64,000 nt of DNA, taken from an uncultured Bacteroidales bacterium (GTDB taxonomy: Bacteria > Bacteroidota > Bacteroidia > Bacteroidales > Tenuifilaceae). A program made the translations under genes and the position numbers. The DNA lies in NCBI GenBank assembly GCA_937926785.1, contig CALBBQ010000013.1, positions 3,209-67,208 on the forward strand, in the 5' to 3' direction. How positions within the stretch are numbered: position 1 is the first letter of the stretch; each line of letters begins with the position of its first letter. The notes beneath the pieces were generated by a model, which was not told the DNA's origin, searched no databases, and worked only from the letters and a program-made list of their open reading frames with translations. Below, piece after piece: positions 36,924 to 41,968 of this stretch.

Positions 36924-38192
36924 CTAAAACTGCAACAAGGTTTCTATGTTGATTTTCTCGGCAATCTTATTTGAAAGGAAAACATCTTTCAGCGCATCAA
37001 CCGGGTAAAGTTTTTCATGAAATACCACATAGAACACCGCATACATGGCGCTGTTCTTAGCCCCTACCCTCTCGCGGAACGGCACCTTCTCCACACGTGC
37101 ACCTGTTTCGGGCACATCGAGCGAATCATCGATGTAAAGAACGCCTGCTTTCATTCTGGATGCAGCTGCACGGGCATATCCTAAACCATCGGAGGAAGTA
37201 ATGATTAACACATCGGGTATGGGTGAGCCAGTGTATAATATTGGATTTGGAGATACAATAACTTCTGAGGCCGAGAAACCAACCCCTACAGTTACCGGAT
37301 AGCTTCCTTTTTTAGTACTGTTTAAACCGGAAACCATTGCTGCCTTTGCCAAAAATTCGGCTGCCGACTGCACACCTTCGCCTGCAGAGCCCGATATCAT
37401 GATGCTCACAGGCTTTTGTATGCTGCTGGCATACTTGGGTTGCACTTCTAACTTCTCCGAGAGCAGACTCTTAGGTTCAAGGTTGACCGGTGTTTTGAAT
37501 GAGGGCCCTTTGCCATCGGCAAATACTCTTACATTCCAACCCGCATCCTCAACAAGTTTAGAGAGTTTCATGCCCGGATTGGATTTCACACCGTAGCTGG
37601 GGCAAATCTCCATCACCTCAACCAGTGAAAAGCCACTTGCGGAGAAGGCTTTTGCAAATGAATCGGAGAAGTCGCCAATGCCAATAACGCGCTCAACGTA
37701 TGATGCGCCCGCTGCAACCATTAGTTCACAGATATCGTAGCCAGCTTTCGTGCTGCCCTCGGGTAGCGTTGGCGTTTTAAAGCCACAGGGAGTAAACTCG
37801 GAGGGTTGCCCCCCGGTCATTCCATAAAGCATGTTGTTATGCACCACCACGGTCATATCGAAGCCCAGATGTGCACCACCTATCAGGTGCTGCATGCCAA
37901 TGGTAGCACCACCATCGCCGGTGAATACAATAACCTTCTTGCCGGGGTTGTTTAATCCGGCAGCTATACCTGCTGCCAAAGCCGATGAACGCCCATGAAG
38001 TCCATGAACGGTATGGGTAAGAAAACTCTTATCAACTATTCCGTGGCACCCAATATCGGTAACCAGCACAACATCGAGGGGGTTGATGTTCAGCTTCTGT
38101 AATGCTTTTCCGGTATTCTGAGCTACCAGCGCATGTCCGCAGCCCTTGCAAAATGGCAGCTGTGCATCGGTAAGGAATCGTAAACTACTCAT
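36924..38192 (-). CDS. 2-oxoacid:ferredoxin oxidoreductase beta(TPP)-gamma fusion subunit
   Basis: ATG at 38192 overlaps the alpha stop by 8 bp. FCKGCGH, DIGCH, HGLHGR, TPP motif GDG..HNNMLYGMTGGQ, EICPSY, then gamma domain SGSAGEGVQSA..SEVIVS..DVLIITS. Confidence 0.88.
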   Translation of the reverse strand: MSSLRFLTDAQLPFCKGCGHALVAQNTGKALQKLNINPLDVVLVTDIGCHGIVDKSFLTHTVHGLHGRSSALAAGIAAGLNNPGKKVIVFTGDGGATIGMQHLIGGAHLGFDMTVVVHNNMLYGMTGGQPSEFTPCGFKTPTLPEGSTKAGYDICELMVAAGASYVERVIGIGDFSDSFAKAFSASGFSLVEVMEICPSYGVKSNPGMKLSKLVEDAGWNVRVFADGKGPSFKTPVNLEPKSLLSEKLEVQPKYASSIQKPVSIMISGSAGEGVQSAAEFLAKAAMVSGLNSTKKGSYPVTVGVGFSASEVIVSPNPILYTGSPIPDVLIITSSDGLGYARAAASRMKAGVLYIDDSLDVPETGARVEKVPFRERVGAKNSAMYAVFYVVFHEKLYPVDALKDVFLSNKIAEKINIETLLQF

Positions 38193-39309
38193 GGCGCAAT
38201 ACCTCCTCAATAATTTCGGTTGGACTAATCATTTTAGCAATCCCGTTAACACCGCTAACCCCATTTCGGCCGGCAACCCCAAATAGCAGCTGCCTTAGCT
38301 GTCCGGTAAGGTTTTCCTCAACTATAACCACCCTTTTGTAGCGTGATGCAATTTCAACATAAACCCGTGGAATGGGAAGCAGGGTTTTAGCCACCAGTAA
38401 CGACACCTTTTCCCCTTTAGCACGAAGAGAAGCAACAGCCTCCCGGGATGCTTGCGAAGAGATATCGTATGTAATAATCAACCTATCTGAGCCCTCCTGC
38501 TCATCGAGATCAAAAACGGTGTACTCATCCAGATGTTTACGCACCTTTAACTCCAGGCGTTTGGTATTGTCAATAGCCTCAGGCAGTACATTTTGTAAAA
38601 TACCCTTTGTATCGTGAGTTGAGGCTGTAATTCGAACCTGATGCTGGTTCTGACTTACGGGTAGAAAATCGGGGATCAGAGACTCATCGGCCTTGTAGGG
38701 AAGGTAAGGGCTGCTGCCGTTGTATAGCTTAACCTGTTTGGGTTTTATCTCGGGCAGGGTTGACCAGTCGAACGACTGAAGGGTCATCACCATCTCCTTA
38801 GATGTTAGCAATACAACAGGCGTGCGAAGTTGGATGGCAGTATGCACGGCTTTTGCCGAAAGTTCCCAGCAATCGTGGTAGTTACTTATTGAAAAGGTGG
38901 GAATGGAGTATCCACCTGACATGGTGCCGAAAACCACATTCAGGTCGCCCTGAGCTCCGCAGGTTGCGGTCCCGGTGGCCGGGCCCAGACGCTGAACCAA
39001 TATGATAACCATGGGTAGCTCCATCATGGCAGCCATTCCAATGGATTCAACCATAAGGGCATAACCCGGGAATGAGGTAGCCGTAACCGGCACATGCCCA
39101 GCCACTGCAAAACCGCTCATCCACTGTAGAGTGGTAATCTCATCGGGAGCGGCCAACATGGTTGGGAAACGCTTGGTTGCATACAAATAAAGCAGATTTG
39201 CCGGAGTTATGGGATAACCCACAAATGTATCGGCCCCTGCCCTAACCAGGGCTTCGGTTATCAACCTTGACCCATCAATAAAAGCCAGGTTCTTTTTACT
39301 TTCGTGCAT
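38185..39309 (-). CDS. 2-oxoacid:ferredoxin oxidoreductase alpha subunit
   Basis: GYPITP, APDEI, TATSFPG, VQRLGP, AQGD, VEENLTGQL. Confidence 0.88.
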   Translation of the reverse strand: MHESKKNLAFIDGSRLITEALVRAGADTFVGYPITPANLLYLYATKRFPTMLAAPDEITTLQWMSGFAVAGHVPVTATSFPGYALMVESIGMAAMMELPMVIILVQRLGPATGTATCGAQGDLNVVFGTMSGGYSIPTFSISNYHDCWELSAKAVHTAIQLRTPVVLLTSKEMVMTLQSFDWSTLPEIKPKQVKLYNGSSPYLPYKADESLIPDFLPVSQNQHQVRITASTHDTKGILQNVLPEAIDNTKRLELKVRKHLDEYTVFDLDEQEGSDRLIITYDISSQASREAVASLRAKGEKVSLLVAKTLLPIPRVYVEIASRYKRVVIVEENLTGQLRQLLFGVAGRNGVSGVNGIAKMISPTEIIEEVLRHE

Positions 39310-40510: not shown

Positions 40511-40525
40511 TATGACTCTCTGGAA

Positions 40526-41968
40526 TTAATCTTTAACAAAAAATTTACGGCGAATGTATCCAAAAATCAGAGCTGCTAAGGCAAATAGAACAGCACCATA
40601 GGTTTTATCCAGATGGAACCAGTTAAGCTTATCGGCAATAATACAGAGAAAGACTGCAATGGTACCGCCAATGAACGAAAGTTTTACGGTAAAAACATCA
40701 ATCCATCCCCTGAAATAGATACCAGCAATGATAACAATTGCACCTATTGCACGAATTGCGTAGCTGATGTAAGCCGAATCGAGCACTCCGGCCTTAAAGT
40801 AGTAGGCTAACGGAATAGTTATCAAGCTAACAATCACAACCAGCCGACGGGCAATCTGAAGAACTTTCTGCTCATCGGCTTCCGGGTTTATGAATCCATG
40901 ATATATATCCTTTGTAGCAATAGTAACCACAGCAAAGTTTACCGGACCAACTGTGGAAAGGATAGCAGCCAGAATACCGGCAAGTGCCAAACCACCCAGA
41001 ATGGGATGGATAAATTCAGGATTAACCAGCAGGTTGGTCATAGCCACCTTAGCCGAAAAGCCGGGAGCCTCGGCTCCAATTTTAAATACTCCGGTAGCAG
41101 CTATAAGTCCAAGAATAGCAGTCATTATACCAAATGGGGCAATATAAGCACTTGAAAGTATAGATGCTTTTTTAGCCACCTCGGGAGTACGAGCAGCAAA
41201 GATAGGTTGGATACTTGCCTGAGCGGCCATACCACCAAGAACACCACCGAGCAAAAGGCTGAACGCCTCGTTAAAGCTTACACCAAACGGATTGTAGATG
41301 CTTCCCACGGCTCCCTTTGCAGCAAGCAATTGCTGCAGGTGAGCAAATCCTCCAATTTTAACAACTCCAACAACCATGGCAATACCTAAACCAAAAAACA
41401 TCACAACCAAATGTACAATTGAAGTGATTGCCAGCGCATGCATCCCACCTATGTAAGTGTAAAGGGTTATAACACCGGCACCAATAATCACAGAGGCAAA
41501 CCAGTCTATCTGGAAAATTGAACTCATGACACTGGTAGCAGTTTGAAGCTGAACATATGCTAAAGTAATGTATGCAATTAAAAATGCTATAGCCGATACC
41601 CTTTTGGCATGAATGCCAAACAAGTGCTCAAGCATCTCGCTAACTGTGTGCACGTTATTCCGCCGGTAATGCTTGGCCACAGTAAAACCAATTATTATCA
41701 TACCAATTGATGTGGCTACATTGTACAGAATAGGCTGAAACGATAGTTTTTGATAAGCCTTTTCGCTTACACCAATGGTACTCATACCTCCCAGCCACTC
41801 CGCAGCTACAACAACTGAGCAAAGCAGTACTCCAAGGTTACGGCCGGCTACAAGATAATCGGCCACAGAGCGTGAAGCCACCTTACGAGTGAGAAACGAA
41901 ACCCCAATAACAATTGCAAAGTATGCAATAACAATCCAAAAATAGATGTTACCTAGTAATGCTTCCAT
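40526..41968 (-). CDS. Sodium:solute symporter family transporter
   Basis: About 13 TM segments. DYLVAGRNLG, AAEWLGG, YTYIGGMHA, AAILST, KDIYHGFINPEA. Confidence 0.9.
   Translation of the reverse strand: MEALLGNIYFWIVIAYFAIVIGVSFLTRKVASRSVADYLVAGRNLGVLLCSVVVAAEWLGGMSTIGVSEKAYQKLSFQPILYNVATSIGMIIIGFTVAKHYRRNNVHTVSEMLEHLFGIHAKRVSAIAFLIAYITLAYVQLQTATSVMSSIFQIDWFASVIIGAGVITLYTYIGGMHALAITSIVHLVVMFFGLGIAMVVGVVKIGGFAHLQQLLAAKGAVGSIYNPFGVSFNEAFSLLLGGVLGGMAAQASIQPIFAARTPEVAKKASILSSAYIAPFGIMTAILGLIAATGVFKIGAEAPGFSAKVAMTNLLVNPEFIHPILGGLALAGILAAILSTVGPVNFAVVTIATKDIYHGFINPEADEQKVLQIARRLVVIVSLITIPLAYYFKAGVLDSAYISYAIRAIGAIVIIAGIYFRGWIDVFTVKLSFIGGTIAVFLCIIADKLNWFHLDKTYGAVLFALAALIFGYIRRKFFVKD

Follow-up and report, generated by a model that had tools for sequence, protein, structure and literature searches.

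Gene Organization of the Locus

The stretch of DNA analysed here (the window; 64,000 nt, positions 3,209 to 67,208 of contig CALBBQ010000013.1) belongs to an uncultured bacterium of the Tenuifilaceae with a 2.77-Mb genome (GCA_937926785.1, G000 in our genome set), and the closest homologues of its proteins carry the names Tenuifilum or Tenuifilaceae. Positions 36924–41968 are occupied by four genes on the minus strand that encode a symporter, a CoA-transferase and the two subunits of a 2-oxoacid:ferredoxin oxidoreductase (OFOR). The first gene (41968–40526, 480 aa) codes for a symporter of the SSS family (Pfam SSF, PF00474, 122 bits), and is followed by a SUGCT-like CoA-transferase of family III (CaiB/BaiF) at 40510–39296 (404 aa, PF02515). 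The alpha subunit of the OFOR (39309–38185, 374 aa) comprises domains I and II (POR_N and PFOR_II), while the last gene (38192–36924) encodes a beta-gamma fusion (TPP_enzyme_C and POR) of 422 aa when read from the ATG. An alternative TTG start at 38210 would give 428 aa; the orthologues have 422 aa. The Pfam profiles thus agree with the identities that an earlier note on this DNA had given to all four genes.

The open reading frame coordinates also bear out the layout described there: four co-oriented genes separated by a 15-bp gap, then 14-bp and 8-bp overlaps, and a single terminator, with no aminotransferase, dehydratase or regulator within the unit. The 14-bp overlap lies at the junction of transferase and OFOR alpha. 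An intrinsic terminator at 36897–36870 (minus strand; 12-bp stem with 6 GC pairs, 4-nt loop, T-run) begins 27 nt past the last stop codon and closes the operon. The gene upstream of the symporter has its own terminal hairpin and T-run at about 42228–42192. Within the 279-bp intergenic region 5′ of the SSS gene (41969–42247), a promoter-like box, TTAATTTGGCAGCC, can be read from the sequence at 42005–42018 (minus strand), approximately 40 nt 5′ of the SSS start. This box, which we take to resemble the Bacteroidetes −7 element, is also kept 5′ of SSS in the closest relatives (L053, L055, L062, L064, L069). An Rfam search of the intergenic region gave no match, and the idea of a regulatory RNA was dropped. 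Overlapping reading frames, conserved gene order and the presence of only one terminator support the prediction that the four genes form one transcription unit.

Conservation of the Four-Gene Module

Orthologues of the transferase are present in 28 of the 57 Tenuifilaceae genomes of our family set. Gene order was followed in 18 enlarged module loci, and the order SSS, CoA-transferase, OFOR alpha, OFOR beta-gamma was intact in all 18, with differing flanks. A wider scan with one genome per species yielded 543 relatives. Among the best 80 that were inspected, all with at least 61% identity, SSS and transferase were found in 80/80, alpha in 74/80 and beta-gamma in 70/80; missing OFOR genes were accounted for by contig ends, except in two loci (L059 and L072). 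Any further gene family was confined to at most 14 of the 80 loci, and the recurrent ones were housekeeping genes. Metagenome contigs were scanned using an alignment of those OFOR forms that lack SSS and CoA-transferase, and 14 of the resulting 80 loci carry the module. The earlier note had listed a lack of co-conservation among the findings that would refute its proposal; the set is clearly kept in the family and in the genome and metagenome loci. The carriers are mainly metagenome-assembled genomes (MAGs) of Bacteroidales; cultured carriers are Perlabentimonas gracilis M08_MB (L104) and Tenuifilum. The module is a real, widely conserved gene unit of anaerobic Bacteroidales and a predicted operon. 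In the two exceptional loci (L059:5565–8948 and L072:1498–5043), SSS and CoA-transferase are followed by a 235-aa protein with metallo-beta-lactamase fold that replaces the OFOR genes.

The CoA-Transferase Resembles Succinate-Glutarate CoA-Transferase

The only family III transferase of the window genome is the one encoded in the module, and its membership is shown by a score of 325 bits with PF02515 (CoA_transf_3). The top NCBIfam model is succinate-glutarate CoA-transferase (NF052585) with 296.5 bits, below the equivalog cut-off of 750 bits, and the runner-up scores 196 bits; none of the module proteins reaches any curated NCBIfam equivalog cut-off. The best PDB matches are 10uh, 4ed9 and human SUGCT (9br6, 240 bits). 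Human SUGCT and NF052585 are the best-scoring characterised relatives, and share the fold and the catalytic Asp with the module transferase. The Asp of a GYD motif (D142), which had been proposed as the catalytic residue, turned out to be the wrong one: D171, within VALMDLLAG, aligns with Asp212, the catalytic residue of human SUGCT (PMC10871334), and with the equivalent Asp of YfdE. Since D171 is invariant in 8 orthologues, the catalytic machinery of the transferase is present. Trp91 and Tyr102 of SUGCT are conserved as well, while His253 is replaced by Asn. As a dicarboxyl-CoA:dicarboxylate transferase, human SUGCT is promiscuous, with a preference for acids of the C4 and C5 type (PMC10871334).

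Transferase homologues of 44–53% identity in other Bacteroidota had no glutaryl-CoA dehydrogenase (GCDH), OFOR or SSS gene within 8 kb, and their contexts were uninformative. A 65%-identical transferase in a MAG of the Deferribacterota lies amid beta-oxidation genes; this lead was rejected because the acyl-CoA dehydrogenase nearby is similar to short-chain acyl-CoA dehydrogenase (SCAD) and is not a GCDH.

Features of the OFOR and Its Substrate Pocket

Both subunits have the hallmarks of the OFOR family. The alpha subunit combines POR_N and PFOR_II with a GYPITP motif, and its QRLGPATG segment aligns with Arg344 and Thr349 of the S. tokodaii enzyme StOFOR (R107 corresponds to Arg344), two residues by which the carboxylate of the substrate is bound (PMC5020499). 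In the beta part, a GDGG...NN motif for thiamine pyrophosphate (TPP) is found, and the Cys ligands of 5b46_B have aligned counterparts in CKGCG, IGC and EICPSYG, which gives four Cys for one [4Fe-4S] cluster (domain VI). The C-terminal part is the CoA-binding domain III. A ferredoxin (delta) domain is not present in the OFOR, and an external ferredoxin is therefore needed.

Comparison to solved structures, i.e., StOFOR1/2 (5b46–5b48), the M. marinus 2-oxoglutarate:ferredoxin oxidoreductase (OGOR; 6n2n) and the 2-oxoglutarate enzyme 8ys5, shows that they have YPITP, the carboxylate-binding Arg, GDG...NN and the four Cys of a single [4Fe-4S] cluster in common with the module enzyme, and that the StOFORs and the M. 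marinus enzyme likewise lack an internal ferredoxin domain. The module enzyme differs in the position of domain III, which is at the C-terminus of beta and not at the N-terminus of alpha as in solved two- and four-subunit OFORs. It also differs in the pocket, which reads IGCHGI[IV]DK in place of IGCSG[KR], and the similarity amounts to only about 100–140 bits. The methanogen VorABC enzyme for 2-oxoisovalerate may also have beta and gamma on one chain with a separate alpha, and includes a separate small ferredoxin subunit. It belongs to another clade, and the module OFOR scores only 125 and 68 bits with the VorB and beta models, respectively. Distant alpha and beta-gamma pairs (35–45% identity, motif IGC[ICV]GL.D) occur in other classes of Bacteroidota (L162–L181), either solitary or adjoining a four-subunit OFOR. 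The beta-gamma layout is apparently a broad and unstudied OFOR lineage.

The pocket motif IGCHGI[IV]DK, together with YGMT in place of YGLT, is shared with OFORs that are linked to GCDH (see below). At the position of Lys49b of StOFOR1, an Ile is constant across the clade, while 8ys5 and 6n2n have Arg. The K49I mutant of StOFOR1 lost its activity with 2-oxoglutarate (PMC5020499), and the constant Ile hence argues against 2-oxoglutarate. With the NCBIfam Kor equivalogs the OFOR stays far under the cut-offs, its best scores being those with Kor-like "OAFO" models. Furthermore, every family genome already has a 1180-aa pyruvate:ferredoxin oxidoreductase (PFOR), a 620-aa Kor-type alpha and a four-subunit OFOR, and roughly half of the family genomes gain one more OFOR alpha gene through the module. 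For the same two reasons, the Ile and these enzymes, 2-oxoglutarate was rejected as the main substrate.

Glutaryl-CoA Dehydrogenase Is the Main Genomic Partner of Related OFORs

The OFOR pair is also found without SSS and CoA-transferase, at 60–68% identity to that of the module. GCDH adjoins OFOR alpha in 28 of the 80 metagenome loci, and is the immediate neighbour in 23 of these 28, mostly with divergent transcription. Adjacency could be judged in 34 non-module metagenome loci with at least 1.3 kb of upstream sequence, and 22 of them have GCDH. Clustering of the GCDH-linked OFORs gives 26 groups at 90% identity and 12 groups at 70%, and the wider surroundings of the pairs vary and consist of housekeeping genes; lysine or aminoadipate genes were not seen beside them. 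The metagenome GCDHs are 75–84% identical to a reference GCDH (L038, the G044 enzyme), whose ten best PDB matches are all GCDHs (387–452 bits; next match 271 bits). In the phylogeny, the window OFOR is nested in a clade in which GCDH-linked and module OFORs interleave. The two contexts meet in three Tenuifilaceae genomes: G044 has crotonase, 3-hydroxyacyl-CoA dehydrogenase (HCDH), thiolase, SCAD, GCDH, SSS, CoA-transferase and OFOR in that order on one strand, a five-gene operon from crotonase to GCDH is convergent with the module in G056, and the two lie about 10 kb apart in G053.

GCDH is specific for glutaryl-CoA and, to our knowledge, an OFOR can form glutaryl-CoA only by oxidatively decarboxylating 2-oxoadipate. 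Because GCDH adjoins orthologous OFORs and the transferase is SUGCT-like, we tentatively assign the operon to 2-oxoadipate and glutaryl-CoA. Its role may well be the ferredoxin-dependent conversion of 2-oxoadipate to glutaryl-CoA with CoA transfer to succinate or acetate, a reading that we hold with slightly less than even confidence. Of the earlier description as an operon of unknown substrate, the set of importer, CoA-transferase and OFOR stands, while the substrate can be narrowed to 2-oxoadipate/glutaryl-CoA by the GCDH neighbours and the SUGCT-like transferase. The identity of the substrate, the direction, the CoA acceptor and the transported species are what we infer from these comparisons.

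It is unlikely that the OFOR acts on another 2-oxoacid (2-oxobutyrate, a branched-chain 2-oxoacid or 2-oxoglutarate) and that the transferase uses the resulting propionyl-, isobutyryl- or succinyl-CoA as CoA donor for a different acid, as part of a generic fermentation module for amino-acid-derived substrates. The hydrophobic Ile and Met of the pocket, the best scores with Kor-like "OAFO" models, and the absence of IlvC from most of the family would be in line with such a role, as would an acyl-CoA carboxylase that adjoins two loci and a gene of the methionine-gamma-lyase family near the operon with caprolactamase-like genes described next. However, no other partner of the OFOR is nearly as common as GCDH, which is specific for glutaryl-CoA, the transferase groups among dicarboxylate enzymes, and Ile takes the position of Lys or Arg in the 2-oxoglutarate enzymes. 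The PFOR, KorAB-type and four-subunit enzymes present in every family genome also speak against it.

A large conserved operon of other metagenomic lineages (L194:874–21311 and L197:2113–18230) contains the OFOR alpha and beta-gamma genes, too. It starts with a 3HCDH-like gene, a caprolactamase-like CapA/CapB pair, RidA and a SCAD-like acyl-CoA dehydrogenase, which are followed by OFOR alpha/beta-gamma, an HMGCS-like gene with DUF35, and an SCP-x thiolase. It continues with (a second, NADPH-linked OFOR and) a split B12 mutase, next to a CoA-transferase of family III.

Some GCDH loci have additional genes. A TetR-family regulator is located between the divergent GCDH and OFOR genes in L314 (6070–6756), L315 and L323, and is a candidate sensor of the pathway substrate. 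In two module-bearing genomes (L208:2191–6637 and L209), GCDH is accompanied by an Fe-S protein, a CCG-domain (HdrD-like) protein and an AEC-family transporter; this arrangement may be a dedicated electron outlet for GCDH.

A Possible Route from 2-Oxoadipate to Glutarate

In the route that we consider for the window genome, the SSS protein would import a C6 dicarboxylic acid, either 2-oxoadipate itself or 2-aminoadipate, which a general aminotransferase would turn into 2-oxoadipate. The OFOR would convert 2-oxoadipate and CoA to glutaryl-CoA, CO2 and reduced ferredoxin. By means of Asp171, the transferase would then pass CoA from glutaryl-CoA to succinate or acetate and release glutarate, so that the energy of the thioester would be retained as acetyl-CoA or as succinyl-CoA, the latter entering the methylmalonyl-CoA mutase route. 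Methylmalonyl-CoA mutase and carboxyltransferases are encoded in the window genome. Glutarate would be the end product in this genome, because GCDH and beta-oxidation genes are missing. With GCDH absent, the transferase would be the only enzyme able to use glutaryl-CoA, and OFOR and transferase would therefore make up a self-sufficient two-step sequence. In the minority of genomes that have GCDH and beta-oxidation genes, glutaryl-CoA could be converted to crotonyl-CoA and further to acetyl-CoA, and the transferase could also activate free glutarate. The earlier note had proposed that CoA is recycled from the OFOR product to the incoming substrate. We found no support for this; if a 2-oxoacid is imported, transfer from glutaryl-CoA to succinate or acetate is more likely.

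The supply of 2-oxoadipate was considered as well. An Iso_dh-family enzyme was not found in the window genome, and endogenous formation of 2-oxoadipate via homocitrate was rejected for this reason. 2-Oxoadipate would therefore need to be imported, which fits a dedicated importer.

Several observations weigh against the route from 2-oxoadipate to glutarate. GCDH, crotonase, HCDH and thiolase are missing from the window genome and from the entire genus, so that a complete GCDH route does not exist; the only acyl-CoA dehydrogenase there is a 596-aa protein common to the family. GCDH is present in only 7/28 module-bearing family genomes and in 10/50 other module genomes. Among family genomes without the module, 3/29 have GCDH; by these counts, the whole-genome correlation of the module with acyl-CoA dehydrogenases or GCDH is weak, and it was rejected as a link. 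Most hosts have no means of processing glutaryl-CoA further, and so would have to excrete glutarate. In the metagenome loci, transferase and GCDH never occur together in the flanks of one locus, and the partner of the OFOR seems to be either GCDH or the pair of SSS and CoA-transferase. Two further loci adjoin acyl-CoA carboxylase, and the recurrent context with the caprolactamase-like pair, RidA, SCAD, HMGCS/DUF35-thiolase and B12 mutase points to other acyl-CoAs. Judged from the residues, the Ile and Met of the pocket would suit a non-polar 2-oxoacid, too. The assignment of the substrate rests on gene neighbourhood and on residue arguments that are weak, and an environmental supply of 2-oxoadipate or 2-aminoadipate is hypothetical.

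The loci in which SSS and transferase stand without OFOR genes (L059, L072) would fit import of the acid substrate of the transferase, e.g., glutarate. The operon could have two entries for glutarate salvage: the SSS protein would import glutarate, which the transferase would activate to glutaryl-CoA using succinyl-CoA or acetyl-CoA, and the OFOR would separately supply the same pool of glutaryl-CoA from 2-oxoadipate, much like SUGCT and the 2-oxoadipate dehydrogenase of mammals, with glutaryl-CoA used elsewhere. SSS and transferase are indeed the tightest pair of the module, the transferase is SUGCT-like, and a complete glutarate pathway would result from the operon of G044, which includes GCDH and beta-oxidation genes. 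Nevertheless, we regard this as quite improbable, since in most module genomes, including that of the window, glutaryl-CoA would be a dead end for want of GCDH or another suitable acyl-CoA dehydrogenase, and the 14-bp overlap of transferase and OFOR suggests stoichiometric, sequential action of the two.

Direction of the Reaction

IlvC (PF01450) is missing in 52 of the 57 Tenuifilaceae genomes, that of the window included, and Iso_dh-family enzymes (isocitrate dehydrogenase, LeuB) are missing in 42 of 57. Neither the canonical pathway to branched-chain amino acids nor the oxidative branch of the tricarboxylic acid cycle seems to exist in the family.

OFORs of rumen Bacteroidales are known to catalyse reductive carboxylation, which lends some weight to an anabolic use of the module. 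An imported acid would be activated with CoA, reductively carboxylated by the OFOR and transaminated, leading from glutarate to 2-oxoadipate, from a branched-chain fatty acid to a branched-chain amino acid, or from succinate to 2-oxoglutarate. The gene order SSS, transferase, OFOR fits this sequence, no downstream enzymes would be necessary, and the family lacks IlvC and the window genome any Iso_dh enzyme. Nonetheless, we consider this direction very unlikely. The IlvC-negative genomes comprise 27 with and 25 without the module; absence of IlvC does not track the module, and the branched-chain variant was rejected on this ground. 2-Oxoadipate has no known use in an organism lacking the aminoadipate pathway, and a Kor-type enzyme is already available for 2-oxoglutarate. 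Moreover, the decarboxylating GCDH is irreversible, and the GCDH-linked relatives must therefore run oxidatively.

Relation to Known Systems

The known route from 2-oxoadipate to glutaryl-CoA is an NAD- and lipoamide-dependent dehydrogenase complex (OADHc) that is typical of aerobes. In the lysine catabolism of mammals and Pseudomonas, DHTKD1/OADHc acts together with SUGCT and GCDH. The chemistry proposed here for the module equals that of this system, including the exchange of glutarate and glutaryl-CoA with succinyl-CoA by a family III transferase, and GCDH, the onward enzyme there, would take this role in relatives as well. Unlike OADHc, the module would use a TPP/[4Fe-4S] ferredoxin-dependent OFOR, without lipoamide E2/E3 and without NAD. 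Its transporter is co-encoded in the four-gene operon, and most module hosts lack GCDH.

Full-text literature searches revealed neither a 2-oxoadipate:ferredoxin oxidoreductase nor such a gene set, in agreement with the earlier statement that the genes match no described pathway. We tentatively propose that alpha/beta-gamma is the first 2-oxoadipate:ferredoxin oxidoreductase, acting in a stand-alone fermentation step of strict anaerobes together with a symporter and a glutaryl-CoA:succinate (or acetate) CoA-transferase. The parts belong to known families; the probable specificity for the substrate, the beta-gamma layout and the logic of the operon are new. If the proposal is correct, the cell would gain reduced ferredoxin and one thioester, equivalent to ATP, by fermenting 2-oxoadipate or 2-aminoadipate to glutarate, which it excretes, and relatives would pair the OFOR with GCDH as an anaerobic counterpart of the 2-oxoadipate dehydrogenase complex. 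It would also add a further substrate class to the OFOR family. The searched literature holds no description of the 2-oxoadipate step in lysine or aminoadipate breakdown by strict anaerobes, a gap that a ferredoxin-dependent enzyme would fill. In addition, a function would be assigned to a gene set of hundreds of uncultured Bacteroidales from digesters, sediments and soda lakes, whose members are currently annotated as "2-oxoglutarate oxidoreductase" and "carnitine dehydratase". As cultured carriers exist, the hypothesis is directly testable.

The Symporter and Neighbouring Genes

The symporter is presumed to import a C6 (or C5) acid. It reached no substrate-specific equivalog of NCBIfam; the score with PutP was 81 bits versus a cut-off of 515 bits. 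Two types of SSS protein with about 59% identity exist, which swap independently of the transferase and the rest of the operon. For example, the transferases of L054 and L268 are 89% identical to that of the window, but their SSS proteins are only 59% identical to the window protein and 87% identical to the SSS of another genus. In L111 the SSS is 85% identical to that of the window and the transferase 63%.

Downstream of the operon, past the terminator, a phosphofructokinase gene is located at 35596–36795 on the minus strand. It neighbours the module in some genera only, with 88–95% identity where it does so, and is probably a separate transcription unit.

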